DNA from: Octopus sinensis | Lineage: Eukaryota | Assembly (NCBI RefSeq): GCF_006345805.1 | Contig: NC_043013.1 | Span: 13,578,001-13,642,000, forward strand | Direction: 5' to 3' | DNA length: 64,000 nucleotides | Shown: positions 1 to 41,904 of the stretch, piece by piece | Position numbering within the stretch: the first letter of the stretch is position 1 | Layout of the letters: each line of letters opens with the position of its first letter | The notes under the pieces: model-generated | The model's input: only the letters and a program-made list of their open reading frames with translations | Database searches by the model: none | What the model was told of the DNA's origin: nothing | Position numbers and translations under genes: made by a program

Positions 1-280
1 CAAGAAGGAAAGCATTGGTATAAGGAAGGAGTTAGAGTCATCAAAAGACCGATAGAAAAGAATGTCAGTAGAATTCTCTGACGAAATTAGAGAGGAGGCG
101 AGGAACAAGACAAAAGTCACATCGGATTACAAAGGCGCAGTATGGCTATAGATAAGGAGTAATGAAGTGCATCATATTTTAGGGATACTAAACCACTAGG
201 AACCAGACGTGGCTTGAGATGCGTCATTGGGGAGGCTGGTTGGTGGAGCGTCAACCTGTAATATGCGGTTAAACAAATGA

Positions 281-740
281 GATGGCGGCGTGGATTTCCA
301 CCTCGGCATCCGAAACTCGGAGTTTTATCACGGCTACTGAATAATTGTCACATTATATTTACAGATAAATTCCACTATTTACATAATATCAAGGTCTCTT
401 TCATTCTTTTGCAGTCTTACCATTTTTATCAATATATATATATATATAGTAGAAATATGTTACAAAAATAAAATATAAAATACAAGTGGAAATGTAAAGT
501 TAAGATATGAAAAATCAACGAAAATGCACATGGCAAATAATAAAAGGCTATTTATGACAGGTAACGACAAATATATACATTTAGGTTGACTGAGGTAGTA
601 ATACGAGTCATAAAAGTCATTATTATGAGATAATTATAAGATGATAATAAAGTAAGAGATAAAAACGGACCATGGTTTACGCAAAGTCATTCATTGTTTG
701 AAAAAAATATATATATAATGTCAAACTGTACTCTTTCTTT
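281..740 (+). mobile_element. Probable PLE pseudo-LTR fragment starting inside a hammerhead (copy at ~9608-10090)
   Basis: GATGGCG...CGGCATCC-GAAA-CTCGGAGT-T resembles stem II, GAAA and stem III; absent from the unit 3 start, which diverges at 25091. Confidence 0.45.
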
Positions 741-800
741 TTGACTCGAACACCTTCAATTCTCTCTCTCTCTCACTCTCTCTTTATCTCTCTCTCTCTC

Positions 801-831
<31 letters not shown>

Positions 832-843
832 TTGTGTGTGTGT

Positions 844-1140
844 GGAGGCGCAATGGCCCAGTGGTTAGGGCAGTGGACTCGCGGTCGTAGGATCGCGGTT
901 TCGATTCCAGATCGGGCATTGTGAGTGTTTATTGAGCGAAAACACCTATAGCTCCACGAGATTCCAGCAGCGGGTGGTGGCGATCCCTGCTGTACTGTTT
1001 CGCCGCAACTTTCTTCTGTTGGCCTGCTCACTTAGCCAGCGGGGTGGCGTCATTTGAAGGCTAAATCAATGCGAAGCGCATTGTGACCAGCGATGTATAG
1101 CAACATTTGATAGCCTGGTCGGTCACATGATCACGTGATA
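844..1140 (+). mobile_element. tRNA-derived SINE
   Basis: A box TGGCCCAGTGG and B-box-like GTTTCGATTCC, non-tRNA body, flanked by microsatellites. Confidence 0.9.
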
Positions 1141-1494
1141 TATATATATATATCAATTCTAATTTACCCTAATTATACAAAAAAGTCAGTAGCTGGTTCA
1201 ACCATTGCGTAATATAATAGTTATCACTTCTAATATAGAAAACTTATTTTGCTCAATGATTATGTAAAATAGTAAACTAATCTATCACTACAAGAAATTG
1301 AACGCTGCTTCACATATGTGAAAAATAATAATCAACTGTACATTGGTATACTGGAAAATGTATTAAGATATTCATAAGCAAAATTTATAAGGTTACTGTT
1401 AATACAGAGTTTTTGATGAAATTCCAAAACACACATTGGTCATAATTTGTGCAAACAGAAGTAATAGAGAAATAAATGAAAAACATTAAATTAC

Positions 1495-1564
1495 TTGGGA
1501 TTCTTCGTCTCTATGACTGTCTTCTTCAGCCAATGATTCTAAATTCCTCTCAGAAGATAGTGAT
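1495..1564 (-). CDS. Internal exon B1 (phase 2 to 0) of unknown gene: SLSSERNLESLAEEDSHRDEESQ
   Basis: Acceptor ttcattttttgtAG, donor CAA|GTaatt, 70 nt open; identical paralog at 10845 and diverged in-frame paralog at 28927. Confidence 0.75.
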
Positions 1565-2575
1565 CTACAAAAAATGAACCAAGGAGAAAGTTTAAGATTA
1601 GTGAAAGTTGTTTGTCATATGGAGTGTAGTTAACATTCTGGACATTTGAACTTCATCTAAAAGTTAAGAAAAGGAGAAAAGTGATATTGTTGCATGGGTT
1701 GGGAGCAAGAAACAATGGAATATTATTGAAAGACTAATATAGGAGGTGATGAGAAGGATGACCAAGAGGGAGTTAAGGTCAGAATGCGTCAGAGGCTAGA
1801 GGAATGGTCAGGGTCTGGTGAACAAAGGTGGAGAGGAAAGCTAAGAGCATATGAGGAGAAGGTAGAAAGAGTCAGTGAGGAGTATGAATAAATTTATGGA
1901 GTAATATCTATGTGTATTTAGACCTGTTGTGAAATTAGGAATACATTTCAATAAGTAGCTTTGAACAATTTTATTTCAAAAGAGAGGTCAGCAAATCTTG
2001 ACGAAGTGCTCAGACAGTAAAACTCGTCAGTTTGATTTTTATTACAAGCTGCTGAAAATATAGTTCATAGACTTCATTTCACATCAAAAGGTACATTTAC
2101 GCATAAAGTCTGGGGTGTAAATACTCATGTAATTAATATCAAGTCATCAAATTTCTACTATTTTCAAATGGCATTTAATTGGTACAATTTTGATTGTGTT
2201 TTGATATATAGCCTTCTGCCATTTATCTCGGTTTTGAGGGATGTGTGGGTGTGTGAGATCTGATGAACTGTAAAAGACAGTAAATCTGCTTAATTTTATT
2301 CACATCTCTAGAAAAACCTCAAATTTCAACAATTACCATAAGGTATTTTGTTTGACCGTTTTATAATTCTGCTAATCCACTACATTTTCTTCAGATGTAT
2401 ATTAAGACACAAACAAACAGTAATATTAGAAGAGATAAACTGATAGGTTAAACATTTCTGAATTGACTGTATGTATTTGGTGGAGATACTTAGCGTTTAT
2501 GGGGCAAATTTCAAATCTACACTAAATACACGGTGGTAACACACTTTACATTGTTCTTAGTTTGCACGGATTTAC

Positions 2576-2626
2576 CTGAGCATCGCTTTTGTTGGAACCA
2601 AAATGTTTTCGCATTTCCCTTTATAT
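2576..2626 (-). CDS. Possible symmetric exon C1 (phase 2 to 2): YKGKCENILVPTKAML
   Basis: gtttcctgtAG ... CAG|GTaaat, 51 nt, phase fits between exons A and B; no convincing counterpart in the oldest unit. Confidence 0.35.
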
Positions 2627-3061
2627 CTACAGGAAACCCCTTTGTAGTTTCCGCTTCAATGTTTCCTTTTCCTTATCGTTATAACGTCATTTCATTTCTT
2701 CAATACAAAAGGTTCTGACTAATGCTTTAGTTGGAATTAATATCATATATTTATAAATATCTGATAAATATTTTCGAGACTAAATAATAATTTCAAATGT
2801 CCAGAAAATTGATTTTTTTAGAACTGAAGATATATTATCAAATCTAGTTCAAAATGGTTAAAGTCGTCAACAGAAACTATGAAAGAGTGAAGTATAAAAG
2901 AAAAAACAGAAACAAAGAAACAATCAGAGCCAGTAAAATTGCTGGATCTCTCGTAACTTTAAAACAAACATCACACCTACATGGTTACATTACATCAACA
3001 AAGGAAAATACATTACTTCAAATAGAATATAAAATCCAATATCACCATAATACCTATACCA

Positions 3062-3103
<42 letters not shown>

Positions 3104-3111
<8 letters not shown>

Positions 3112-3742
3112 ATATTTCGGAATGGTCATTTTGCCAGTTTAGCCAATAAAAACACACGCACTATATATTTGATGTTACTTTGCTTCAGTGTTATTTATTT
3201 ATTTACATTAAACTTACTTCACATAGAATATAAAATCCAATATCACCATAATACCTATACCAATATACATATAAATATATATATATATTGTTGTATTTCG
3301 GAATGGTCATTTTGACAGTTTAGCCAATAAAAACACACGCACTATATATTTGACGTTACTTTGCTTCAGTGTTATTTATTTATTTACATTAAACTTAATC
3401 TTATTTCGGTCAGAGTTCTTTCGTCACACTCCTGTGACCGCATCAGTGGTCCTTTGCTTTCTTCTTTCTTATTTGCGTGTCTCTCCTTACTAACCGTCAG
3501 CCATTTTGTTTTTCTATTGTATGTGTCTATGTGTATTCATTTGCGCATGCTTATATCTCTATGTGCGTCTATGTTTAGTTAGTGTGTGTGTGTGAATGCC
3601 TGTGATATTTGTATCTTCTGTTTATATGCGTTCGTGTAATTTGTTTTTGTTTATTCTTATTTTGTTCATGTGTTTACATCCACTTATTATTATTATCATT
3701 ACGTATGCTTGTATGTATGTATGTATGTATGTATAACAACAA

Positions 3743-3792
<50 letters not shown>

Positions 3793-4325
3793 ATAATAAT
3801 AATAATAATAGTAATAAAACATTTTAAAACATTTAAAAATTTTAAAAATAAAAACAATCTTATTAATTTTTAAAAAAATTATATAGTTGTTTATTTATAT
3901 TTGTTTATTTATCTGTGTATTTTATTTATTATGTTTTCGGCTTTGTTTATATTGTAACCAGTTTATGGGGATCCTCTACTGTCATATGCTGTGGTGTGTG
4001 CTAGTGTTCCATTCCAGTTTCCTATTCAGGCTAGGTTAATCTTCTATTATGTGTGTAGCTTCCGTAACTTGTCTGATTGTTGCATCTGTTCTATGCGTGG
4101 GCAAGATTTTAACTTCTATGTTGTTGATTGATCCCCCGTGTTCATGCTCGGCATGTTGGTGCAGAATCGATGAGCTTTTACCTTCCTTAAGTTCTCTCCA
4201 ATGTACATTTACCCGCTCTCCTATGCTTCGTGCCGTTTCCCCTAGGTATGTCGTTGTCTTGTTACTGCATCATCCCTCTATACATCTTATACTATAGGCT
4301 ACTATTATCTTAGCCTGAATATTTT
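3104..4325 (-). mobile_element. Penelope-like element 3' part: GIY-YIG endonuclease remnant plus pseudo-LTR
   Basis: Minus translation YLGETARSIGERVNVHW...HQHAEHEH...RQVTEA...LNRKLEW; degenerate hammerhead at 3408-3452. Confidence 0.85.
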
Positions 4326-4440
4326 AAGTTTTATGATTATTAATTTTTATCAATATTAATTATTTACTATTATTCATTTTCATTTTTATTAAATTTCATA
4401 TTTTAACATTTTTGTATACTTTCTTTTATGATTATCTTTT

Positions 4441-4630
4441 AGGCGGCGAACTGGCAGAATCGTTAGCGCGTCGCTTCGTTCGGAGTTCAAATTCCACCGA
4501 GTCGACTTTGCTTTTCATCCTTTTGAGGGTCGATAAATTAAGTACCAGTAAAAACACTGGAGTCGGTGTAACCGACTAGTCTCTTCCCCACAAACTCGAG
4601 ACCTTGTGCCTACAGTAGGAAGGATTATTA
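4441..4630 (+). mobile_element. SINE, second family (copies at 15521-15700 and 57535-57665)
   Basis: GGCGGCGAACTGGCAGAATCGTTAGC...GAGTTCAAATTCC head, GTCGACTTTGC...GATAAATTAAGTACCAG core, (ATT)n tail. Confidence 0.85.
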
Positions 4631-5635
4631 TCATCACCTTATTTTATTATTATTATTATTTTTCTTAAATAAAAATATTAATACACACACACAAATAACA
4701 AAGCATATTTCATCTACTTTGTTGGAGTATCTCAACCGATCAGCATGTAACTTCCTTTCGGCTTTCGAAACCGCAGCTCCAAATCACCGTACGATAACCT
4801 ATCACTAGACCAATGAAATTTTACCTCCGATCAGAACTGGACCCTCAAGAAAATAAACAGACTGACTCGGTAAGAGAATCAAACAACAGGAACGTTTCAT
4901 GACCATTCCCCACAGGCAAGACAACCAGGCAGAATGTCAAACTTGGTCTCCAGAAAGAATAAGAATAAGAATTATAACGAATTAAAAATTATATTCTTTC
5001 ACAGAAAAGATTATAGATACACTGATTCCAAAGCAGTCCGTTACAGGCGAAAAACCCTCTACGCGACGGTAAAAAGACTCACATACAGGATGAAAGAAAC
5101 TCTAACAAAATCCCTTTTGCTTACTCTCTTCTTTCTGTATCTGTTTCTCTCTTAACTCAGTATGATTGAACTTTTGGCGATCCACATCTTTTATATACTT
5201 CGCCCATCATTTTCTGATATTATTGAATTTTGTGAACATTTAATCATTTAAACATATTGATCCACATTTTTTACATTCTTAACCGATCATTTTCTGATAC
5301 TATTGAATTTTGCGAACATTTAATCATTTAAATATGTTTTCTACTTCGCAAACAAAACACGGCCTTGGGACCGAGGAGAGGAGGTAACGCTTAGAAAATG
5401 TCTTGAAGGATGGTGAACATAGCGACAGAAAATTTGCGACTGTTCAGCTACGGGACCAGTGTAAGAAGGAAAGAAAAGGGGATGCTAGCAGTTGGTCACG
5501 CGACAGCAGCAGGCAGAGGAGAAAGACTGCAGGGTGAGAGAACGACAGAGAAAAATAGGGAAGTGATGAAGGGAAAGAAGAAAGGCTGGGAATACAAGAG
5601 AGAGAAGGATTAAGTAGAAAGTCTATAATAAATAA

Positions 5636-5679
<44 letters not shown>

Positions 5680-6164
5680 GTATATGTATATATATTAAGT
5701 ATGTAAGTATGTTTTAAAATGTATGGGCTATTTACGGAGTGCTCATAGAGAGCCTACGCGAAAAAATACAGAGTAGAGAAAATTTAAAACGCAAGTCTTG
5801 GAAAGTCAAACAGATTCCCGAATGCATAAATGAGAAATTTCAATCGAAGTAGTTGGATCATATATATTTATACATATCAACATAAATCATGCATGTACAG
5901 GCGTGAAAATTCCCCAAGGTTATAAAGAATGAAATCAAACATACATCGAAATATAGAAGAAATATGAAAATTTATATAAAAATACTTATCAAATTACATA
6001 TAAATAAATTTACATGTAACGAGTTATACGTGATAAATATAGGAGGTGCAAAGTGGATGAGAGATTGGTACATTCTGTAAGGATCAGATATCGAGATGTG
6101 TAGGTATTTAGTGGGTCTTTCGATATGATGAAGAAAGTTTATCTGGAAATGTCTGTCTACTTAC

Positions 6165-6223
6165 ACATCATCAAAAAATATCGATGCCGAAGTCGGTTGA
6201 ATTTGTGTTTCTATTTTTTCAGG
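6165..6223 (-). CDS. Internal exon A1 (phase 0 to 2): PEKIETQIQPTSASIFFDD(V)
   Basis: Acceptor tttcctcttttctctAG, donor GT|GTAAGT; 59 nt; paralogs are 56 and 53 nt (3n differences). Confidence 0.8.
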
Positions 6224-7135
6224 CTAGAGAAAAGAGGAAAAACAACGTTAATTGTTGAAAGAAACGTTTGGGTTAGTATTTCTAGGTATAGAAAACAAGT
6301 TTTAAGTAAAATATATGTTTGAAGGAGGAGGTATATAAGTAACAGTAGTAAGCAAGAGGCAAAGAATAACCACATCTAAAAGTCTAACAACTACACACGG
6401 ATATAGACACAGAAAAATCCACTTACAGATAAAAGATAAACAGTTTTATTTTCAATTTAATTTTAGAGATTTCAACATGGTTAGCATCATTGAATTCAAA
6501 TGAAGGCCTGAAAACGTATTTACGACTATTTTACTTTTATGAAGTCCAGTATTTATGATATCAGTGCAGATCTTTTTAATATCTTACTAATTTAGGCATA
6601 ATTAAATAAAATCTTTAGGAAAATAATATCATCAGATGCAATATGAAACACAATTTATATATGTATACATGAATTATAAAGTTCACATCCTGAAATCACC
6701 AAAAGACTCCCAAGAGACTAAAATTCAAAGAAGAAAAACATTAAAGACATTAAATAGCTTTAAACGTTATAGAAAGTTTTTTTTAAAATTATGATGAACA
6801 TATAAATATCATTTAATGTAAGTTTATTTAAGCGTGTACATATTAATTCTACATTTTCCCAATTGAAAAAAATTTTATACAATATTTTATATGAAATTTG
6901 TACAACTTTTGCAAGGATTGTGCAGTCTAAACAGGAACTAACTTATCTTTCTCAATTCACCCATGATTGCAGGTGTCTTGCACAAATACTATTCACTTAT
7001 GAACCTTATCCGAACACTTCCTTGCTACACTAGGGTATTAGTTTTAGTGACAAGAACATCTATATTCCCAGAAGATCAACATAGGAATCAACAAAGCGAA
7101 CCTGACTGGAGTACAGCATATATATATATATATAT

Positions 7136-8264
7136 ATATTGGTTTGTCAAGAAAGCTCTAGTGGTGTTTAACCTTTAAATTCAGATACACATATCTCGGC
7201 TCAGACATCATCTTATTTTTTGAAGCATTTCTCACGGAAGTTGACGAAATGCTTGAAAAAGTGGTAGTCGGTAGGAGACAGGTCTAGTGAGTACGGCGGA
7301 TGAGGCAGAGTTTCGTAGCCAATTCATTCAACTTCTGCAGGGTCAGTTGTGCAACGTGCGGCCGAGCGTTGTGGTGGAGAAGAATTGGTCCTTTTCTATT
7401 GACCAATGCTGGCTATTGTTGTCGGAGTTTCTTATGCATTCCATCCATTTACTGACAGTACTTCTCCGCCGTAATGGTTTGGGATCCAAAAAGCTGTGAT
7501 GGATGAGACCGGCCGCAGACCACCAAACAGTCACTAAGACCTTCTTTTGGTGCAACTTTAGCTTCGGGAAGTACCTTAGAGCTTCGTCGTTGTCCAACCA
7601 CTGAGATGAGCGTCGCCGGTCGTCGTAAAGATTCCACTTTTCATCGCAAGTCACAATCCGGTCGAGAAATGTGTTGTTTTTGTTGCGTAAAAGAAGGGTA
7701 GACGACACTTCAAAACAGCGTTTTCTTTCTTTTTTGGTTGTCGTTCAATTCGTGCGGCACCCATTTCTCGAGTATTTTTGTTTTTCCAATCTCTTTCAAG
7801 TGGTTGGAAATTGTCGTTTACGTTACGTCTAATTCAGAAGCAAGCTCTTGAGCAGATGTGTGTGGATTGGTTTTCACTAAGGCTCTTAGTTGATCGTTGT
7901 CAACATCCGATCGCTGACCACTACGCTTATCATCTTCAAGACTCTCATCACCGCTACGAAATCTCTTGAACCACCATTGTGCTGTACGTTCATTAGTGGT
8001 TCCTGTGGAGCCAAACACATCGTTGCTATCGCGAGTTGTTTCAGCAGCTTTTCGGCCTAACTTGAACTGCAATAAGAAAATTATGCGAATTTGCTTTATG
8101 TTCATGTTGTATTCAACGTTCCAGAAAAAATGGCCTAATTATTAAAAAAAAAAAAAGAGTAACACGATTAGATAGAGCGAAAAACAAGCTTTAAAATGTT
8201 ATCTAAAGTCAAAGAAATTTACCGAAAACTAATTTGAAAATACATCATTTCCTGACAACCTAAC
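7136..8264 (-). mobile_element. Mariner transposon, frameshifted transposase
   Basis: FKLGRKAAET...WFKRFRSGDESLED, RIVTCDEKW, LHQKKVLVTVWWSAAG, YSLDLSPTDYHFF; imperfect TIRs; sits in (TA)n. Confidence 0.95.
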
Positions 8265-8313
<49 letters not shown>

Positions 8314-8329
8314 CACACACACACACGTA

Positions 8330-9010
8330 TATTACGTTCACTTTCCAAGTAGCACTGCAACACAATCCCGTTTTCTTTGCTGGACCAGTTCTCCTCCCTG
8401 CTCTATAATTTGCTGTTGCTGTATTAGGATAACAGCTGTGATCAATCTGCATCTTTATTGAACCAATGCCGAGCGAGAGGCTTTCTCTTAAGGACCCAAC
8501 CTCATTTTTTCTGTCACATCCACACTTTCTATGCGAACTGCTGTCGCATAAACTGAGTTAAGATTTCTTTCCCCACCATCGTCATCACCATTATTTTTCA
8601 ACAACTGATTGCTTCAAGTAACTTTCTGTTGGTTGGTTTTGCTATGGGTCATTCTTTACAGCGTTTACTTTTTCGCAGAACACCGCCCGTGGAATGTGTT
8701 GATGTTTCTTTCGTATTTATAATAATTCTTGATGTATAAACGAGAGTCCGTGAAGAAACAGTAATGCGCATTCTCTCCCCGTTTGGCAATTCTTTGCCCC
8801 TACATTTTACTCTTTTCTCCCGCTTCAAAGTAATCACCGAAAACTTCGAGATACGTATTTCCGTCACTATATCCTTGTTGCACATTTGCACAGTCTCAAA
8901 ACCAGCTTTCCTTTTCAGACTCTGCCGTTTGCGAAAAGTTTTAATCAGCCATAAAGAGGTGTTTGAGATGGGGTCCATTCTTTCTCAGCTTATAGTGCCC
9001 ATTGATTTTG
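8330..9010 (-). mobile_element. Old R4/Dong-like non-LTR RT fragments
   Basis: ETVQMCNKDIVTEIRISKFSVITLKREKRVKCRGKELPNGERM; paralog at 24300-24560. Confidence 0.7.
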
Positions 9011-9756
9011 CATAGCGCTACAGAAAGTTCAAACCAACATTCTACATGCTATTACTTATAGTTTAATCTAAAACTATTTTTCACTCATACACACACACAC
9101 ACACACACACTAGTTAGAATGTACTCTTGATGCGTAAAAAAATTAACGTATTCCTTCTTAAATATGGTAAATGTGATCAACCTAAGAGACAGAAAGTTGA
9201 AGCAGAAAGAAACCACAAGCTAGCAGCATATCTAAATATTCAGGAAATATTCAGTATGTGAACTAATAAGAGTTTGGGGAGTGAGATGGGGTGGGCACCC
9301 ACAGTGACTTAGTATTATAAATAATGACAAGAAGGAAAGCATTGGTATAAAGAAGGAGTTAGAGTCATCAAAAGACCGATAGAAAAGGATGTCAGTAGAA
9401 TTCTCTGACGAAATTAGAGAGGAGGCGAGGAACAAGACAAAAGTCACATCGGATTACAAAGGCGCAGTATGGCTATAGATAAGGAGTAATGAAGTGCATC
9501 ATATTTTAGGGATACTAAACCACTAGGGACCAGACGTGGCTTGAGATGCGTCATTGGGGAGGTTGGAAGGTGGAGAGGCAACCTATAATATGCGGTTAAA
9601 CAAATGAGATGGCGGCGTGGATTTCCACCTCGGCATCCGAAACTCGGAGTTTTATCACGGCTACTGAATAATTGTCACATTATATTTACAGATAAATTCC
9701 ACTATTTACATAATATCAAGGTCTCTTTCATTCTTTTGCAGTCTTACCATTTTTAT

Positions 9757-9816
<60 letters not shown>

Positions 9817-10150
9817 GAAATATGTTACAAAATAAAATATAAAATACAAGTGGAAATGTAAAGTTAAGATATGAAAAATCAACGAAAATGCACATGGCAA
9901 ATAATAAAAGGCTATTTATGACAGGTAACGACAAATATATACATTTAGATTGACTGAGGTAGTAATACGAGTCATAAAAGTCATTATTATGAGATAATTA
10001 TAAGATGATAATAAAGTAAGAGATAAAAACGGACCATGGTTTACGCAAAGCCATTCATTGTTTGAAAAAAATATATATATAATGTCAAACTGTACTCTTT
10101 CTTTTTGACTCGAACACCTTCAATTCTCTCTCTCTCTCACTCTCTCTTTA

Positions 10151-10193
<43 letters not shown>

Positions 10194-10194
<1 letters not shown>

Positions 10195-10490
10195 GAGGCG
10201 CAATGGCCCAGTGGTTAGGGCAGTGGACTCGCGGTCGTAGGATCGCGGTTTCGATTCCAGATCGGGCATTGTGAGTGTTTATTGAGCGAAAACACCTATA
10301 GCTCCACGAGATTCCAGCAGCGGGTGGTGGCGATCCCTGCTGTACTGTTTCGCCGCAACTTTCTTCTGTTGGCCTGCTCACTTAGCCAGCGGGGTGGCGT
10401 CATTTGAAGGCTAAATCAATGCGAAGCGCATTGTGACCAGCGATGTATAGCAACATTTGATAGCCTGGTCGGTCACATGATCACGTGATA
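10194..10490 (+). mobile_element. tRNA-derived SINE (duplicate of 844-1140)
   Basis: Identical sequence. Confidence 0.9.
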
Positions 10491-10844
10491 TATATATATA
10501 TATCAATTCTAATTTACCCTAATTATACAAAAAAGTCAGTAGCTGGTTCAACCATTGCGTAATATAATAGTTATCACTTCTAATATAGAAAACTTATTTT
10601 GCTCAATGATTATGTAAAATAGTAAACTAATCTATCACTACAAGAAATTGAACGCTGCTTCACATATGTGAAAAATAATAATCAACTGTACATTGGTATA
10701 CTGGAAAATGTATTAAGATATTCATAAGCAAAATTTATAAGGTTACTGTTAATACAGAGTTTTTGATGAAATTCCAAAACACACATTGGTCATAATTTGT
10801 GCAAACAGAAGTAATAGAGAAATAAATGAAAAACATTAAATTAC

Positions 10845-10914
10845 TTGGGATTCTTCGTCTCTATGACTGTCTTCTTCAGCCAATGATTCTAAATTCCTCT
10901 CAGAAGATAGTGAT
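10845..10914 (-). CDS. Internal exon B2 (phase 2 to 0): SLSSERNLESLAEEDSHRDEESQ
   Basis: Identical to B1 with the same splice sites. Confidence 0.75.
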
Positions 10915-11966
10915 CTACAAAAAATGAACCAAGGAGAAAGTTTAAGATTAGTGAAAGTTGTTTGTCATATGGAGTGTAGTTAACATTCTGGACATTTGAA
11001 CTTCATCTAAAAGTTAAGAAAAGGAGAAAAGTGATATTGTTGCATGGGTTGGGAGCAAGAAACAATGGAATATTATTGAAAGACTAATATAGGAGGTGAT
11101 GAGAAGGATGACCAAGAGGGAGTTAAGGTCAGAATGAGTCAGAATGAGGCTAGAGGAATGGTCAGGGTCTGGTGAACAAAGGTGGAGAGGAAAGCTAAGA
11201 GCATATGAGGAGAAGGTAGAAAGAGTCAGTGAGGAGTATGAATAAATTTATGGAGTAATATCTCTGTGTATTTAGACCTGTTGTGAAATTAGGAATACAT
11301 TTCAATAAGTAGCTTTGAACAATTTTATTTCAAAAGAGAGGTCAGCAAATCTTGACGAAGTGCTCAGACAGTAAAACTCGTCAGTTTGATTTTTATTACA
11401 AGCTGCTGAAAATATAGTTCATAGACTTCATTTCACGTCAAAATGTACATTTACGCATAAAGTCTGGGGTGTAAATACTCATGTAATTAATATCAAGTCA
11501 TCAAATTTCTATAATTTTAAATGGCATTTAATTGGTACAATTTTTATTGTGTTTTGATATATAGCCTTCTGCCATTTATCTCGGTTTTGTGGGATGTGTG
11601 GGTGTGTTAGATATGATGAACTGTAAAAGACAGTAAATCTGCTTAATTCAATTCACATCTCTAGAAAAACTTCTGCTTCAATGTATGATTTCTTACATAA
11701 AATAAAACCTCAAATTTCAACAATTACCATAAGGTATTTTGTTTGACCGTTTTATAATTCTGCTAATCCACTACATTTTCTTCAGATGTATATTAAGACA
11801 CAAACAAACAGTAACATTAGAAGAGATAAACTGATAGGTTAAACATTTCTGAATTGACTGTATGTATTTGGTAGAGATACTTAGCGTTTATGGGGCAAAT
11901 TTCAAAGTTATACTAAATACACGGTAGTAACACACTTTACATTGTTCTTAGTTTGCACGGATTTAC

Positions 11967-12017
11967 TTGAGCATCGCTTTTGTTGGAACCAAAATGTTTT
12001 CGCTTTTCCCTTTATAT
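11967..12017 (-). CDS. Possible exon C2: YKGKSENILVPTKAML
   Basis: attcctgtAG ... CAA|GTaaat, 51 nt. Confidence 0.3.
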
Positions 12018-12452
12018 CTACAGGAATCACCTTTGTAGTTTCCGATTCAATATTTCCTTTTCCTTATCGTTATAACGTCATTTCATTTCTTCAATACAAA
12101 AGGCTCTGACAAATGCCTAAGTTAGAATTAATATCATATATTTATAAATATCTGATACATATCTTCGAGACTAAATAATAATTTCAAATGTCCAGAAAAT
12201 TGATTTTTTTAGAACTGAAGATATATTATCAAATTTAGTTAAAAATGGTCAAAGTCGTCAACAGAAACTATGAAAGAGTGAAGTATAAAAGAAAAAACAG
12301 AAACAAAGAAACAATCAGAGCCACTAAAATTGCTGGATGACTTGTAACTTTAAAGCAAACATCACACCTACATGGTTACATTACATCAACAAAGGAAAAT
12401 ACTTTACTTCAAATAGAATATAAAATCCAATATCACCATAATACCTATACCA

Positions 12453-12494
<42 letters not shown>

Positions 12495-13920
12495 CGGGAA
12501 GCTTTATGAAAATAGACAAAAGACGAAGGCAGGTTTACGGAAATAAACAAAATACGAAGGCAGGTGGAATACAAACAAACAATTGTATTAGTATGGCGCT
12601 CAGGAAATATAAATAAAACAAGTCTTTAACGTTTCGAGCCTACGCTCTTCAACAGAAAGATACACAGAGAAGAAACACAGAAAGAAGGAGAGAAAAAAAA
12701 TGCGTGCAGAGGCTAGCGAATCAACATGGCGATCTGATTTCGGCCAGAAATAATATTGCTTATTTTTCTTTCGAAAATGATTTTTTACTCGATTGCTTGG
12801 AAGTGCTAAGGTGGAAACCGAGATGTATAACTTGGTATAAGAAGAGACAAAAATTGAAATAATCATTTCATATTTATGATTTACATCAACATAATAAATA
12901 CATAACTACATACACAGATATAACATATATTAAATTTAAGGTTAAAGGACGTTGAAACAAGGATTAATAGTTATAAGATACATCGACAGTAGTTAGAAAT
13001 CCTAATTATAGATTTAAAATTTTAGAAGAGTTCCGAAGAAATGATTTATAGAGGTTATTAACATCAATATGAAGCAATTCGACGGCCGTTTTGGGAGTCC
13101 ATTAGTCAGTAGGTATGAATCCTTTCGTTTCACACTGACATGTCCCCTTTACTAGGGATAAAAAAATAGATAATTAATCAAGTTTGAAGACATGTAAGAG
13201 AAAAGAAAAGAAAGGAAGGAAATTTCTGGTTACATTACGTTGGTCGTCGGCTACTCTATCAGATACTGACCACTTTTACGATGATTCACCCTTATATACA
13301 AAAGGAAACTTCTAGTGTAGGATGATGGGTGAAGTTTTAAAAACAATCGATTTTCCAATAAATTCCGAGAATAATCAATTACTAATAGCAGAAATAGCAG
13401 GACTGCCAAATACTTCATTCCTTGTATCTCGTCTTATAGAGTTCCGTGAAAGATGAGTGAAATCTATGGGTTCATGAATGAATGGTATAAGACAATTTAT
13501 TTAATATGCCCGAATTGCAATATTTTAGAATAATGTATGATTCTCTAATGCATAAAGTACATTTGTTACCTATAGCATTATAGGGGAGACCGTTTGCTAG
13601 TATATATGCTCTTATTCCTTAAATTATGTATATATGAGGGTAAAGTAGTAGAATTTTTATATTTAATGTTAGTAAATGAATTTAAATGCGTTCTATAACT
13701 TTTTTTTTAAATACAACAGTACTAACTATATATGTTCCAGTCTGATATTTATCTGATACCACTGTACATCCGTATACTACATTTTTATGGAGACAGAATC
13801 CTTCAAGTGGGCATAAATCGATTTTTCTACAACTAAATATTTTCCCTAATTTATTTTTGCTATTATCTATATATTTTGGAGGGGTGGATTTCCATTATTT
13901 AAGGCTACCTTAAAGAATTT
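12495..13920 (-). mobile_element. Degenerate Penelope-like element with pseudo-LTR
   Basis: Hammerhead-like TCTTT-CTGTTGA-A-GAGC-GTAG-GCTC-GAAA-CGTT-AAAGA at 12623-12660; RT remnant IDVNNLYKSF at ~13045-13075. Confidence 0.7.
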
Positions 13921-13924
13921 TAGT

Positions 13925-14175
13925 TGAGGAAATCAACTCCGGGACTCATTCTCTGTAAGTCTAGTACTTATTCTATAGGTCTATCCGCGAACCGGTAAGT
14001 TACGAGAACGTAAACACACCAACGTCGGTTGTGAGACGATAGTGGAAGGAAAAATACAGACACGAAGACACACACATACACATATACATAATATACGACG
14101 GTCTTCCTTCGGTTTCCCTCTACCAAGTCCACTCACAAGGCTTTGGTCGGTCCGAGGCCTTAGTAGAAGAAATCG
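13925..14175 (-). mobile_element. Composite SINE
   Basis: Shares GTGTTTACG..CGTAACTTA.CGGTTCG..ATAGAATAAGTACTAG body with copies at 35815-35935, 42835-43060 and 51905-52095. Confidence 0.8.
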
Positions 14176-14420
14176 TTTTGCCATCGCGCCCAGCCTGTTA
14201 TATAATGTTGAAAAGCTACAAAAATGGTGAAACACCGATATCCATCATTCCAAAATGGGAATGAGGGTGAGTTATCTCGCCTGTCTATGACTAAGTTGTT
14301 TTAACACCGTCGAAATGAGCGTTATATACTCCATTACACCATTGTAGACAACTGACACTTACCATCATATAAGCTACTGTGAGTTTTCATAATAATAATA
14401 ATAATAATAATAATGATAAT

Positions 14421-15405
14421 ATTGTTATATTTCGGAATGGTCATTTTGCCAGTTTAGCCAATAAAAACACACGCACTATATATTTGGTGTTACTTTGCTT
14501 CAGTGTTATTTATTTTTTATATTAATCTTAATCTTATTTCGGCCAGAGTTCTTTCGTCACACTCCTGTGACCGCAGCAGTGGTCTTTTGTTTTCTTCTTT
14601 CTTATTTGTGTCTCTCGTTACTGACCGTCAGTCATTTTGTATTTCTATTGTATGTGTCTTCATTTGCGCATGCTTATATCTCTATGTGCGTCTATGTTTA
14701 TTTAGTGTGTGTATGTGTGGAGATGCCTGCAATATTTGTATCTTCTGTTTATATACGTTCGTGTAATTTGTTTTTGTTTTATTTATTCTTATTTTGTTCA
14801 TGTGTTTACATCCACATATTATTATTATCATTACGTATGCTTGTATGTATGTATAACAACAATACTAGTAATAATAAAATAATAATAAAACATTTTAAAA
14901 CATTTAAAAATTTAAAAATAAAAAAATAAAAAAAAATCTTTTAAATTTAATAATGAGATTATATAGTTATTTATTTCTATTTGTTTATTTATCTGTGTAT
15001 TTTATTCATTATGTTTTCGGTTTTGTTTATATTGTAACCAGTTTATGGGGATCCTCTACTGTCATATGTGGTGGTGTGTGCTAGCGTTCCATTCCAGTTT
15101 CCTATTCAGGCTAGGTTTATCTTCTATTATGTGTGTAGCTTTCGTAATTTGTCTGATTGTTGCATCTGTTCTATGCGTAGACAAGATTTTAACATCTCTG
15201 TTGTTGATTGATCCTCCGTGTTCCTGCTCGGCGTGTTGGTACAGAATCGATGAGCTTTTACCCTCCTTAAGTTCTCTCCAATGTACATTTACCCGCTCTC
15301 CTATGCTTCGTGCCGTTTCCCCTAGGTATGTCGTTGTCTTGTTACTGCATCATCCCTCTATACATCTTATACTATAGACTACTATTATCTTAGCCTGAAT
15401 ATTTT
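14421..15405 (-). mobile_element. Penelope-like GIY-YIG/pLTR remnant (paralog of 3104-4325)
   Basis: Colinear copy; degenerate hammerhead at 14541-14584. Confidence 0.85.
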
Positions 15406-17225
15406 AAGTTTTATAATTATTAATTTTTATCAATATTAATTATTTACTATTATTCATTTTCATTTTTATTAAATTTCATATTTTAACATTTTTGTATACT
15501 TTCTTTTATTATTATCTTTTAGGCAGAATCGTTAGCGCGTCGCTTCGTTCGGAGTTCAAATTCCACCGAGTCGACTTTGCTTTTCATCCTTTTGAGGGTC
15601 GATAAATTAAGTACCAGTAAAAACACTGGAGTCGGCGTAACCGACTAGTCTCTTCCCTACAAACTCGAGACCTTGTGCCTACAGTAGAAAGGATTATTAT
15701 CATCACCTTATTTTATTATTATTATTATTTTTCTTAAATAAAAATGTTAACAAACACACACAAATAACAAAGCATATTTCATCTACTTTGTTGGAGTATC
15801 TCAACCGATCGGCATGTAACTTCCTTTCGGCTTTCGAAACCGCAACTCCAAATCACCATGCAATAACTTATCACTAGACCAATGAAATTTTACCTCCGAT
15901 CAGAACTGGACCCTCAAGAAAATATACTGACTGACTCGGTAAGAGAATCAAACAACAGGAACGATTCATGACCATTCCCCACAGGCAAGACAACCAGGCA
16001 GAATGTCAAACTTGGTCTCCAGAAAGAATAATAATAAGAATTATAACGAATTAAAAATTATATCCTTTCACAGAAAAGATTATAGATACACTGATTCCAA
16101 AGCAGTCCGTTACAGGCGAAAAACCCTCTACGCGACGGTAAAAAGAATCACACGCAAGATGAAAGAAACTGTAACAAAATCCCTTTTGCTTACTCTCTTC
16201 TTTCTTTATTTGTTTCTCTCATAACTCAGTATGACTGAACTTTTGGCGATCCACATCTTTTATATACTTCGCCCATCATTTTCTGATATTATTGAATTTT
16301 GTGAACATTTAATCATTTAAACATATTGATCCACATTTTTTACATTCTTAACCGATCATTTTCTGATACTATTGAATTTTGTGAACATTTAATCATTTAA
16401 ATATGTTTTCTACTTCGCAAACAAAATAGGGCCTTGGGACCGAGGAGAGGAGGTAACGCTTAGAAAATGTCTTGAAGGATGGTGAACATAGCGACAGAAA
16501 ATTTGCGACTGTTCAGCTACGGGACCAGTGTAAGAAAGGAAGAAAAAGGGGCACTGGCAGTTGGTCACGCGACACAGCAGGCAGAGGAGAAAGATTGCAG
16601 GGTGAGAGAACGACAAAGAAAAATAGGGAAGGGATGAAGGGAAAGAAGAAAGGCTGGGAATACAAGAGAGAGAAGGAGTAAGTAGAAAGTCTATAATAAA
16701 TAAATACCCCCACACATATATGTGTATATCTATATATATTAAGTATGTAAGTATGTTTTAAAATGTACGGGATATTTACGGAGTGCTCATAGAGAGCCTA
16801 CACGAAAAAATACAGAGTAGAGAAAATTTAAAACGCAAGTTTTAGTAAGTCAAACAGATTCCCGAATGCATAAATGAGAAATTTCAATCGAAGTAGTTGA
16901 ATCATATATATTTATACACATCAACATAAATCATGCATGTACAGGCGTGAAAATTCCCTAAGGTTATAAAGAATGAAATCAAACATACATAGAAATATAG
17001 AAGAAATATAAAATATATGTAAAAATACTTATCAAATACATATAAATAAATTTACATGCAACGAGTTATACGTGATAATATAGGAGGTGCAAGTGGATGA
17101 GAGGAGGTGCAAAGTGGATGAGAGATTGGTACATTCTGTAATGATCAGATATCGAGATGTGTAGGTATTTAGCGTGTCTTTCGATATGATGAAGAAAGTT
17201 TATCTGGAAATGTCTGTCTACTTAC

Positions 17226-17281
17226 ATATCAAAAGATGTCGATGCCACAGGCGCTTGAATTTGTGTTTTTATTGTTTCAGG
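17226..17281 (-). CDS. Internal exon A2 (phase 0 to 2): PETIKTQIQAPVASTSFD(I)
   Basis: Same acceptor and GTAAGT donor as A1; in-frame 3-nt indel. Confidence 0.8.
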
Positions 17282-18177
17282 CTAGAGAAAAGAGGAAAAA
17301 CAATGTTAATTGTTGAAAGAAACGTTTGGGTTAGTATTTCTAGGTATAGAAAACAAGTTTTAAGTAAAATATATGTTTGAAGGAGGAGGTATATAAGTAA
17401 CAGTAGTAAGCAAGAGGCAAAGAATAACCACATCTAAAAGTCTAACAACTACACACGGATATAGACACAGAAAAATCCATTTACAGAAAAAAGATAAACA
17501 GTTTTATTTTCAATTTAGTTTTAGAGATTTCAACATGGTTAGCATCATTGAATTCAAATGAAGGTCTGAAATCGTATTTAGAACTATTTTATTTTTATGA
17601 AGTCCAGTATTTATGATGACAGTGCAGATCCTTTTAATATCTTACTAATTTAGGCATAATTAAATAAAATCTTTAGGAAAATAATATCATGAGATGCAAT
17701 ATGAAACGCAAGTTATATATATATATATATAAATGAATTATAAAGTTCACATCCTGAAATCATCAAAAGACTCCCAAGAGACTAAAATTCAAAGAAGAAA
17801 AACGGTAAATACATTAAATAGCTTTAAACGTTATAGAAAGTTTTTTTTTTAAATTATGATGAACATATAAATATCATTTAAAGTAAGTTAATTTAAGCGT
17901 GTACATATTAATTCTACATTTTCCCAATTGAAAAACGGACATATATGGATACAATATTTTACATGAAATTTGTACAACTTTTGCAAGGATTGTGCAATCT
18001 TAACAGGAACTAACTTCTTATATTTCTCAATTCACCCATGATTGCAGGTGTCTTGCACAAATACTATTCGCATATGAACGCTTCCTCGCTACACTAAGGC
18101 ATTAGTTCTTGTGACAAAAGCATCTATATTCTCAGAAGATAACATAGGCATCAACAATGCAAACCTGGCTGAAGAAC

Positions 18178-18252
18178 AGTATATATATACATATATAATA
18201 TATATTTATAAATATATTTATATATATATATATACATTTATATATATTTCTT

Positions 18253-19134: not shown

Positions 19135-19180
<46 letters not shown>

Positions 19181-19209
19181 CAATATATATATATATACAT
19201 ATACATATA

Positions 19210-19243
<34 letters not shown>

Positions 19244-19272
19244 CATATACATATATATATATATACATATAC
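18178..19272. repeat. About 1.1 kb compound (TA)n/(TACA)n microsatellite
   Basis: Seen directly; source of the spurious YI/YM ORFs. Confidence 0.98.
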
Positions 19273-19279
19273 ATTTTTA

Positions 19280-21009
19280 CCACTGCAGATATAGAATCAG
19301 AGGCGGCGACGTTAAATTACATCGATATAAAGGAAGATGATGTAATAAAGGCTATAGATGAAATGAAAATAGACTCAGCTATTGGCCCCGATGGATTCCC
19401 GGCAATCCTCCTAAAAGTATGTAAGAGAGTCTTAGCAAGACCACTGCAGTTCCTCTTTCAGAGCTTCCTTGCAGCTGGCAAACTTCCAAGAAAACTGAAG
19501 GAAGGTAAAATATGCCCTATTCATAAGGAGATAGCAGAGCGGAGGCCAAGAACTACAGACCTATCTCTCTGACCTCACACATCAGCAAGGTCATGGAACG
19601 AATAGTCAGAAGGAACTAATCACCATTCCTTGAAGAAAATGACTTGCTGCCTGACACCCAACATGGTTTCCGACCAGAAGAAGCTGCTTAACTCAGCTCC
19701 TGCAGCACTATGACTGGGTGCTGAAACAACTGCTCAACCACTCAAATGTGAAAGTCATATATCTCGACTTCGCAAAGGCCTTTGAGAAAGTCGATCATGG
19801 AATGATATGTCACAAACTGCGTGATCTTGGCATAGTTGGAAAACTAGGAGAATGGCTTCACAACTTTCTGAAGAATAGGAGTCAGGTGGTAGTAGCCAAT
19901 GGGGCCACTTCCATTAGCACGCAAATAGTGAGCGGTGTTCCACAGGGCACTGTTTTGGGACCACTACTGTTCATAATGGCCCTCTCAGACATGCCCTCAG
20001 CCACGCGGAGAGCCACGATCACAAGTTATGCAGATGATACAAAAGTTTCACAGGAAATACAGAACCCTGAAGACACTAGGCACCTGCAATATGAGCTGGA
20101 CGAAATATACAAGTGGGCTGAAAAAATTGCATGCAGTTCAAAGCTGAAAAGTTTCAAGCTTTATACTATCAGCATGCAAAACTGAATGCAATACCCAAGG
20201 AATACACTGGACCCGGAGGGATTGCAATCTCAGAGGCAGAATCAGTGCGTGACCTGGTTATTCACATGAGTGACTACGCGACCTTTCATGTACATGTTGC
20301 TAAACTGACAATGAAATGCAGACGGCTGGCTGGATGGATTCTTAGAACCTTTAGAACAAGAAACCATGATGGTCCTCTGGAAGACACTTGTCCTAAGTCA
20401 CTTTGACTATTGCTCTCAGCTATGGTCACCATCCAGTGTCAAGTTGATCACAGAACTTGAGGCGATCCAACGAAGCTACACGAAGAAGATAGCCTCTATG
20501 CAGAATGTAAGCTACTGGGAAAGACTCAAGAGATTAAAATTATATTCCCTGGAGCGTAGGCGGGAAAGATATGCCATAATATACATCTGGAAGATCCTGG
20601 AGGGAGGTGTCCTGAACTTTGGCATCGAGAGTTACGCAAACGCCAGAACTGGGCGCCACTGCGTGGTGCCTAGGACTCCAAACTTGCCATCAAGATGTAG
20701 GACAAGATTCTGTGATAGCCTGGGCTTCCGAGGCCCACAGCTCTTCAATATCCTCCCGATGAACCTGAGAGACCTGCATGGGGTGGATACAGATGTCTTA
20801 AAATGGAGCTGGATCTCTTCCTGTCAGTGTCCCAGATGAACCAACTTCACGGCAGGAGGGGCAGATGAGGGCAGTGCATCGACTCTCCATGCACCAAATA
20901 GCAGTTGCTAGAAGCCTCCATGAAGTGAAACCAAGTAGCAACACCAAATGGCGGTGCCCCAGCATGGCCACAGCTCATGAGCTGAAACTGGAATCAATCA
21001 ATCAATCAA
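19280..21009 (+). mobile_element. 5'-truncated CR1-group LINE (RT and 3' end), frameshifted
   Basis: GPDGFP, NYRPISLTS, YLDFAKAFEKV, SGVPQGTVLGPLLF, YADDTK, SLERRRER; (ATCA)n tail. Confidence 0.93.
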
Positions 21010-28926: not shown

Positions 28927-28975
28927 TTGTTTGGGTTTCTGACCAGATTCCTCAGCCATTTCTTGAAGTTCTAGT
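28927..28975 (-). CDS. Internal exon B3 (phase 2 to 0): LELQEMAEESGQKPKQ
   Basis: Acceptor tttattgatttcgcAG, donor CAA|GTAAGC; 49 nt (21 shorter than B1); flanks weakly homologous to B1 flanks; LQEMAEES aligns to LESLAEED. Confidence 0.75.
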
Positions 28976-35745: not shown

Positions 35746-36023
35746 AAGATAAATTGATAGATACAACTGAGTGCGCAAACAAAAATATGAGACAGCCTAG
35801 TGCTTTTTTATGTTGATAAGCCTGGTACTTATTCTATTAGTTTCTTCTTGTGAAACCAGTAAGTTATGGGGATGTAAATAAACGGACAGCAGTTGTGAAG
35901 CAGTGATGAGGGCGAAACACAGAAACAAAGTCACACACATACACTTACATATGTACATACATATATAAACGATTGATTTCTGTAAGTTTCTGTCTACGAA
36001 ATCCATATATATATATATATATA

Positions 36024-37358
36024 GGGAGAGTTTTCGAAAAAAAACAAAGGACGAAGAGAGGTGGTGTACAAAACAAACAGATGTATTAGTATAACGCTCA
36101 GGAATAGAAAAAGTCTTTTACGTTTCGAGCCTACGTTTCGGATCGATGCTTCACAATAATTACCAACACCATCTTCATCTTGAGTGCCTTGTGATGAGAC
36201 TTCATCTTGACTATCTGATACAGTTAAATTCTGCAACATTTTAAAAGACTTGGACAGAATATCACGCTTACTATGGAGACCAGAGAATCTCATTTCATCA
36301 TCTTCAGAGTTGTGACGCAGTAGTGGGTTCTTCTGTTTCTTACGAGACACTGTAGGTGTAGTAGCTTCTTCTTCATCAGCAGGTTTCTCGGTATCAGTCA
36401 TCCATTGCAATACTTTGAAGGACAGTGGCTGCTTTGATGGATTGCTGCCAGTTAATTTTGTATCGGCAGCTTCCTCAGCACGTCGGGCCTCCTCAGCACG
36501 CTTTGCTGATTCATTTTCTGACTTCAGATTCACGATAATTTATCTTTGGTTTGTCAGGTAACCTGCAGGGATCATATTTCGGCCCACCAGAAATCTTCAT
36601 GTTGTCACCACCAGCAGCAGTAATAAGGCCTCCAGACTGACAAGCTAATTCCTCAGTAGCGGCTTCAGCAGAATACAATCCTAGAGGAGAATTGTACTGG
36701 CCATGAACGAAAGTTCCAGAACCAGCCCCAGGTGTTATAGGGGTAACGGGACTATGAGGTTGCCTAGCATAAGTTGGTGAAATAGGGCTTGCATTGCTAC
36801 TGTGAGGTGAAGGGTAAGACTGCTAATGCTGCTGCTGTGGTTGGGCATAATACTGAGGCTGTGGTGGTGTGTAGGTTGGTACTTGGTGGGCAGCTGCTTC
36901 CTTCTTTGCAGCCTGCACATCTACCTTCGGTCCTTTCCGGGCAGATTGATTGTAATGCTGTCTGATAGTTCTTGGTATTTTGGGTCCCTTAGTAGAATCC
37001 CGAAAAATAGGTCGTGGTAAAGGTGGCAAAGTAACAAAAGGGTGAGCCTCATTTCTCATCATAGTTTAGCGATTTGTATATTCCTTTTTTTTTAAAAAAA
37101 AAAGATATATGAAGTGTGTTGCAATAAGATAAATTAATGCGTTTTGTCGAGAAATAGTGATACGAATCTAAAGCCGTCCGAATGAAATATCACTGCGAGA
37201 AAGAGAAGCGCAATTTTGGACTGATGTCACTGAGGAGAGAAACACAATTTTGATTAACTGACGCTCTTCAAAAACTCTTTCTCTTAATTTTTATACAGAA
37301 AGGGACACAGAAAAAAACAAGGAGAGAAAAATGTGTGTAGTGGCTAACGATCTATCAT
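36024..37358 (-). mobile_element. PLE pseudo-LTR split by an insertion (36024-36135 and 37261-37358)
   Basis: Same family as the intact copy at 12495-12730, broken at GAGCCTACG|CTCTTCAA. Confidence 0.85.
36136..37260 (-). pseudogene. Intronless pseudogene fragment of a ZM-motif (Zasp/PDLIM-like) protein
   Basis: ATG at 37062; FVHGQYNSPLGLYSAE (ZM motif), YRESEVRK, QPLSFKVLQWMTD, SKSFKMLQ; in-frame TAG at 36823-36825, frameshift at ~36512, 3'-truncated. Confidence 0.9.
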
Positions 37359-38375: not shown

Positions 38376-38428
38376 CCATTGGCAGAAGATGCCATTGCCA
38401 CCGGCCTTCGTCTTCCACCTCTTCCAAT
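38376..38428 (-). CDS. Internal exon A3 (phase 0 to 2): IGRGGRRRPVAMASSAN(G)
   Basis: Acceptor tattattctctAG, donor GG|GTAAGT; position homologous to A1/A2; 53 nt open. Confidence 0.8.
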
Positions 38429-41395: not shown

Positions 41396-41904
41396 GTTTT
41401 TTACAATATTGCCGATGTATTATCCTTCACCAAACTTATGTAAAAATGGGCACATGCTCAAACAATGTGAGGGATGCCAAGAAGGGAGCGGGTAGGTGAG
41501 AGAAAGTATGAAAACAATAAGTGCATAAGACACCAACATGAAGACGGAAGTAGTGAGAGGCAGATGTTGTTCAAGGTAAAAAAAAATCATTGATACTATG
41601 ATTTAACATTTACCTGCATTATAATGAGGGTGGAGCGAAATAAAGGCAGTATTCCGAAATTAGTGATCATATTTCTCTAATTCTATATGTATGAAATTCA
41701 GTAACCTGAGGTTCCGCAAAACAAAGGATGCCTGTATAAACGGCGTGAGGTATTTTAAGCACTTATTTGTGTCTATTAACTTACAAGATTAGGAAAGGTA
41801 TTATGTTAGAAAATCAAGCATTTATTATTAGTCGTGACCCTTGGATTAATGGGATTGATATGAAGTTATTGAACCAAAAAACAAAAATTAGCGTGGGTGA
41901 GTCT

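Follow-up and report, generated by a model that had tools for sequence, protein, structure and literature searches.

TRPM2 and other beta-TRPM channels (human TRPM2, PDB 6MIX; octopus gene P0021) carry a SLOG domain (MHR1/2; PF18139), which they share with the Octopus sinensis gene family described here. The gene examined is read from the minus strand of a 64,000-nucleotide stretch of DNA (C17: 13,578,001–13,642,000; hereafter the window) in a genome of 2.72 Gb, and its 5′ part contains copies of a short exon, exon A, arranged in tandem. The ADP-ribose site of human TRPM2 includes Y295, R302, R358 and a loop, as set out in the accessible part of PMC6759353. The octopus family differs from TRPM2 in having up to four SLOG domains per model, no match to NUDT9H, a replaced TGGAKNF loop and a variable equivalent of R358. 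Moreover, its N-terminus is an expandable array of exon pairs, and the window's model is pore-less. Exons that outrun their introns are a known pattern, and exon A provides a real and well-supported signal of this kind in a new variant of the known TRPM family.

CARD8 and NLRP1 are under positive selection within a disordered N-terminal "tripwire", according to the available portion of PMC10249858. They resemble the octopus family, as far as that portion goes, in being duplicated genes with a ratio of nonsynonymous to synonymous rates (dN/dS, ω) above 1 localised in a disordered N-terminus. The octopus modules differ in being tandem exon copies without homology to either protein, and Pfam detected neither FIIND nor CARD in the five proteins scanned. 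Schistosome micro-exon genes (PMC4350168, available in part) and venom genes share lineage-specific recent duplication, high dN/dS, short exons and an apparent alternative use of modules with the octopus gene. Their products, however, are secreted or surface-exposed, whereas the tail in which exon A lies belongs to a channel-derived protein and is predicted to be cytoplasmic.

Genomic hotspots of TRPM genes are known in bivalves and gastropods, where the accessible sections of bioRxiv 2024.05.23.594666 describe local, lineage-specific expansion on one chromosome, as in octopus. Those sections, and the corresponding ones of other reports, give few octopus TRPs and do not mention multi-SLOG or pore-less copies. 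For O. sinensis, the available part of PMC13402157 gives a single beta-TRPM, and like that of bioRxiv 2021.11.14.466824 it credits cephalopods with few TRP channels and little expansion. Multi-SLOG forms are likewise not mentioned in the accessible portions of PMC13143021 and PMC7306681. Our literature search, which covered openly readable articles, found no account of the cluster; subscription papers and supplements could list its genes.

Evidence for diversifying selection on exon A

Two hypervariable phase 0–2 modules, exon A1 (6165..6223, minus strand, 59 nt; PEKIETQIQPTSASIFFDDV) and exon A2 (17226..17281, minus strand, 56 nt; PETIKTQIQAPVASTSFDI), are both bordered by AG on one side and GTAAGT on the other. 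A preliminary description of this DNA had counted by hand nine substitutions in 56 nt between the two, together with one codon indel and no synonymous change. Our recount gave exactly these values; the substitutions affect eight codons, the indel is a GAT, and every substitution falls at codon position 1 or 2. The accompanying counts for the near flanks were also exact (4/257 at 6224–6480 and 3/120 at 6045–6164). Across the wider introns of the two units, 82 of 1979 aligned bases differ (4.1%). The exon does evolve faster than the intron, at a ratio of 3.9 against these wider introns (p = 6.4e-4 by the Fisher test that had been proposed), but the 8.7-fold excess derived from the near flanks is inflated, because these are unusually conserved relative to the whole unit. 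Exon A3 (38376..38428, minus strand; IGRGGRRRPVAMASSANG), of which half had been called unalignable while its flanks still align, is indeed less similar to A1 and A2 (54–61% identity) than its flanks are (78–79%). This is weaker evidence, since A3 is an older, basic-type phase 0–2 module.

Exon A has 26 matches in the genome, of which 15 are close copies (90–100%) and ten entered the main test. The test leaves out L011, which equals L009 except for a 1-nt deletion, and four A0-type copies, because the two flanks of the latter differ in age: their upstream intron has been homogenised with the A1 class and their downstream intron has not. A tree-free minimum for the ten copies is at least 22 nonsynonymous (N) and no synonymous (S) changes in 20 codons, with 12 changes at codon position 1, 10 at position 2 and none at position 3. 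The introns of the same copies carry 181 changes in 1418 columns, and their rate predicts 5.5 N and 2.0 S for exon A (P(N≥22) = 1e-7). In a maximum-likelihood codon model that takes its branch lengths, mutation spectrum and synonymous rate from the introns, ω is 4.7 (likelihood-ratio test, p = 9e-11). It is about 5 when either flank alone serves as calibration, and ω>1 is still preferred when the exon rate is left free (p = 2e-5). Without A1 and A2, the pair first noticed, the eight remaining copies show 16 N and 0 S (P = 9e-6). Taken by itself, the A0 group (11 N and 2 S) exceeds its own introns, ω>1 being inseparable there from a raised rate (p = 0.11).

None of the 1447 overlapping 56-column windows in the introns reaches 22 changes (mean 7.7, maximum 18). 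Neutral simulations, 5000 at each of 1, 2, 3, 3.4 and 4 times the intron rate, gave N≥20 together with S=0 at most twice per set, by which a neutral hotspot running at 2–4 times that rate is rejected. The dN of exon A is above both the intron rate and dS, and a raised mutation rate is not sufficient to account for it. The codon-model, intron-window and simulation tests support the diversifying selection suggested in the preliminary description, and, judged from sequence comparison, exon A has probably evolved under it.

The variable positions of exon A are codons about 3–5, 9–17 and 20, and the codons that vary most come after a nearly constant Gln (codon 9). Further exon A variants are carried by O. 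vulgaris and O. bimaculoides models. Identity to O. bimaculoides is 39–42% for exon A and 77% for SLOG repeat 1 (SLOG1).

Acceleration in other exons of the gene

Acceleration of the gene as a whole is not seen in exons B, B′ and F or in exon E of SLOG repeats 3 and 4. Exon B (seven copies, no indel) has 5 N and 1 S (ω 0.7), exon B′ (seven copies) has 8 N and 1 S (ω 1.45, not significant), and exon E of repeats 3 and 4 has 1 N each. The exon E that opens SLOG repeat 1, found about 22 kb past the left end of the window, has 18 N and 2 S among five copies (L098–L102; ω ~5–7), with almost all of the changes in codons 16–28. Between two of its copies, about 12 differences fall within the 84 exon bases and 2 within 796 flanking bases, a stronger contrast than that of exon A. 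The L102 variant resembles the more distant repeat L109 and is plausibly a conversion from it. A 24-mer from the L100 variant is unique genome-wide at ≤2 mismatches, with no donor in the assembly.

Splicing and gene structure

Exon A is a real spliced coding exon. Contigs of four of the 24 listed sequencing runs were compared with positions 5900–6900 of the window. Three contigs of run X2 are confined to exon A, and at their loose ends they continue 5′ into the last letters of exon B and 3′ into the first letters of B or B′. As these are letters of the neighbouring exons, they indicate splicing at the predicted borders, the A–B junctions resting on loose-end letters rather than on one stretch spanning both exons. 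The labelling of X2 as RNA is a guess, none of the listed runs being recorded as RNA. One X2 contig (record 11) has no differences to A1 over 6173–6223 and departs from the intron at 6223, and the other two fit the paralogues L004 and L005 by their listed letters and difference counts; three exon A variants therefore occur in spliced X2 contigs. The A2 letters are present in contigs of X6, possibly the assembly's own source, and of X8, from another study, while the X1 contigs contain no clean exon A junction. Consensus error, which the preliminary description had named as a way in which the pattern could arise, is rejected because further runs contain contigs with the A1 and A2 letters.

The O. 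sinensis RefSeq model XP_036366249.1 (LOC115221043), recovered by a search with one downstream SLOG exon, has an N-terminus that agrees at every letter with the end of A3 followed by B′, A2, B2, A1, B1 and A0, which confirms the reading frame. The frame proposed earlier was correct by this model and by the contigs, but the claim that the substitution pattern supports it independently does not hold, because that pattern presumes positive selection. All of these exons are on the minus strand. Exon B′ (28927..28975; LELQEMAEESGQKPKQ), which is not accelerated, and the acidic exon B2 (10845..10914; SLSSERNLESLAEEDSHRDEESQ) are of phase 2–0, and B2 is identical to B1 (1495..1564), beyond which, outside the window, come exon A0 (about −3381) and the SLOG exons. 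The first coding exon probably ends at 41614..41619 (minus strand), where ATG CAG is followed by a GT donor, as judged from O. vulgaris models that start with MQI (P0005 and P0009). The RefSeq model starts inside A3 and thus lacks this exon.

Since exon A is of phase 0–2 and exon B of phase 2–0, the pair can be duplicated in frame. An intragenic tandem duplication of the A+B module covers 1..18203, in which 1–3102 corresponds to 9328–12493 (95%) and 3285–7139 to 14419–18203 (91%), and it is a patchwork of ages. The same architecture is common to O. vulgaris and O. bimaculoides models. FoldIndex is below 0 in all windows starting at residues 1–151, and the N-terminus is accordingly hydrophilic and predicted to be disordered. 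An AlphaFold model of P0005 made without an alignment is uninformative (mean predicted local distance difference test score of 35), and an ESM Atlas search with the module array returned no usable match.

A TRPM2-derived SLOG family in Octopus

The window's gene belongs to a TRPM2-derived family specific to Octopus, which has SLOG domains in tandem, a changed ADP-ribose loop and duplicates that apparently lack the pore. Downstream of the window, exons code for the SLOG domain (MHR1/2) known from TRPM channels, and PF18139 matches four stretches in P0001 (E 3e-204). The model of the window's gene has four SLOG domains and lacks a pore: a Pfam scan found no Ion_trans domain in P0001, and no six-helix pore was found for this gene copy. 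An inverted paralogue (XP_036366250–254) combines modules of this kind with a pore, its model P0012 containing TRPM2-like and Ion_trans domains with TRPM2 as best match (E 1.6e-142). Pore-exon matches are located on C17 at 14.39 (+), 24.95 (+) and 26.13 (−) Mb, which is a lower bound, and none of these at least three loci lies downstream on the strand of the window's gene. The C-terminal NUDT9H domain (PF25969) is absent from all Octopus matches listed.

One SLOG exon has 17 genome matches, 12 of them within C17 13.06–13.85 Mb. In a midpoint-rooted tree of 36 SLOG domains, built without alpha-TRPM or TRPS rows, one clade (100/100) unites 20 Octopus rows and adjoins the canonical octopus TRPM2-like gene, P0021 (C17 about 24.87–24.95 Mb). 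The loop after the first SLOG strand, identified as the ADP-ribose loop by our own reading of the TRPM2 alignment, is kept as TGGAK[N/D]F in 13/13 non-octopus rows and three canonical rows. It is lost in all 18 readable rows of the derived clade, where IGGRED or IGERQD replaces it. The equivalent of R302 appears to be mostly kept, and in place of R358 several repeats appear to have P, K, G or Q. With 12 matches to a SLOG first exon in 0.8 Mb, one nearby pore module found and sharply localised positive selection, the locus suggests an overlooked, fast-evolving TRPM2-derived system.

The sequence at the start of O. bimaculoides P0020 shares 60% identity with the end of P0004's last SLOG unit, and P0010 and P0020 may therefore be one split gene. 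Together they may represent a channel with five SLOG units, the 5′ part of which was re-duplicated in the sinensis/vulgaris lineage.

Tandem multi-SLOG genes of TRPM derivation, mostly annotated as pore-less, were also observed across C17 13.06–13.85 Mb and among the models P0001, P0004, P0010, P0016 and P0020. An older paralogue at C17 about 26.17–26.21 Mb (L058–L067) is a full channel (O. vulgaris P0018). Its N-terminus is also a series of short phase 0–2/2–0 exon pairs, and its A-like exon does not differ between O. sinensis and the O. vulgaris model. Arrays of A+B modules with no SLOG exon match nearby can be found at C17 12.75–12.80 Mb (five A copies in 12.75–12.79) and 8.81–8.84 Mb, and are possibly 5′-only gene fragments. 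Several unplaced contigs are near-identical to one another or to C17 copies (L009/L011, L054/L055, L016/L017 and L012/L013), and these are likely haplotigs or redundant assembly.

Possible drivers of exon A diversification

If exon A is under selection, there may be about an even chance that a host–parasite conflict drives it. The reading that we favour, which we hold tentatively and at a little below an even chance, is that the exon A copies diversified by positive selection on a short, predicted disordered motif that a changing parasite or pathogen protein would contact as a bait or decoy. Unequal crossover would have multiplied the phase-compatible exon pair A(0–2)+B(2–0), and also the 5′ part of the gene, comprising modules and SLOG domains and apparently not the pore. 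Selection would then have favoured amino-acid replacements in exon A and in exon E at the start of SLOG repeat 1, with short conversions probably moving variants from copy to copy. The exon A motif would be a contact for a foreign, changing protein, comparable to the tripwires of CARD8 and NLRP1. An interacting partner would be sought at the variable codons of exon A given above and at codons 16–28 of the SLOG1 exon. A broader proposal, which we regard as rather doubtful, is that a TRPM2 channel was rebuilt as an immune-type sensor, consisting of a channel with about five SLOG units and remodelled pockets together with a pore-less swarm, with expandable, alternatively spliced exon A baits engaged in an effector arms race. 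If true, the family would be the ion-channel equivalent, in an animal, of tripwire and integrated-decoy receptors.

Several points weigh against the bait reading and the selection underlying it. Molluscan TRPMs are usually regarded as sensory or thermal channels. The test covers only 20 codons in one assembly and uses our own codon model, and the absence of synonymous changes in exon A is by itself compatible with the intron rate (P ~0.10). The four-gamete test fails at 17 of 78 informative site pairs, so that exon A variants must either recur or be shuffled by conversion, and with such homoplasy in the array a single intron tree is imperfect. Exons F–I of SLOG1 have 27 N and 8 S, about the intron rate; they look relaxed rather than constrained, and some copies may therefore be decaying. 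The nearest downstream SLOG exons (L030–L031, ~33 and ~37 kb past the left end of the window) contain two 1-nt indels, both in homopolymer runs. These may reflect assembly error or decay to pseudogenes; an assembly gap lies just past the exons. The RefSeq model bypasses these exons in favour of a copy lying about 90 kb beyond, and it appears to end in an intron read-through.

The main rival to a parasite-driven contact is paralogue-specific regulatory tuning of sensory channels. Selection would here be real and its driver internal, with paralogues or splice forms adjusting a Ser/Thr/Pro-rich regulatory motif (phosphorylation, trafficking or subunit choice) in a sensory or thermal TRPM or in pore-less dominant-negative subunits. 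Molluscan TRPM expansions are tied to heat stress in the available part of bioRxiv 2024.05.23.594666. The modules also occur on full channel models (P0008/P0012 and P0018), RefSeq isoform X4 omits them, and serine, threonine and proline are frequently gained or lost at the variable residues. Regulatory linkers, however, usually drift, and would not be expected to change at about 4.7 times the neutral rate on many branches; exons B and B′ of the same tail, moreover, are not accelerated. On balance, we consider internal tuning unlikely, though it is the alternative to be taken most seriously.

A non-adaptive origin is improbable. It would combine a mutation or conversion hotspot in exon A with strong constraint on synonymous sites, such as splice enhancers, or would have the introns homogenised by conversion and older differences preserved in the exon. 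The array does show clear signs of conversion: B1 and B2 agree at every position across 401 nt, the A0-type copies are mosaics, and the four-gamete failures and the likeness of L102 to L109 point the same way. A rate of 3.4 times neutral, however, would give about seven synonymous changes (P(S=0) = 0.0002). CpG hypermutation is rejected, as exon A has CpGs only at positions 29 and 41 and one CpG transition in 22 changes. The preliminary description had also considered that A1 could be a short conversion tract from a more distant paralogue; no donor tract was found, the A1 19-mer being unique genome-wide at ≤1 mismatch, and the 24-mer of the L100 exon E is similarly unique.

Reproductive or other intragenomic conflict, in which the family would be expressed in germline or sperm and shaped by sexual selection, is quite improbable. 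Rapid duplication with ω>1 is typical of reproductive genes, but the region is predicted to be cytoplasmic rather than a ligand on the gamete surface. The N-terminal region of TRPM channels is cytoplasmic. The analogies with venom and gamete-surface genes drawn in the preliminary description do not fit an exon located in this region of a TRPM/SLOG protein. Accelerated exons are known in venom genes, yet a venom or secreted toxin gene is excluded by the family assignment and predicted topology of this TRPM/SLOG member with its hydrophilic N-terminus, and an assembly artefact, given the A1 and A2 letters in contigs of other runs, is just as hard to credit.

Other elements in the introns

A processed pseudogene of a PDLIM/ZASP-like gene, recognisable by a DUF4749 motif and bearing one stop and one frameshift, is located at 35994–37065 (minus strand) in the intron after A3, and is missing from the inverted paralogue. 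Its multi-exon parent lies at C3 about 138.69–138.74 Mb. Open reading frames at 7343–8138, 19147–20839 and 48019–49566 of the window represent what we take to be intronic remnants of mariner-type transposases and of reverse transcriptases from long interspersed nuclear elements.

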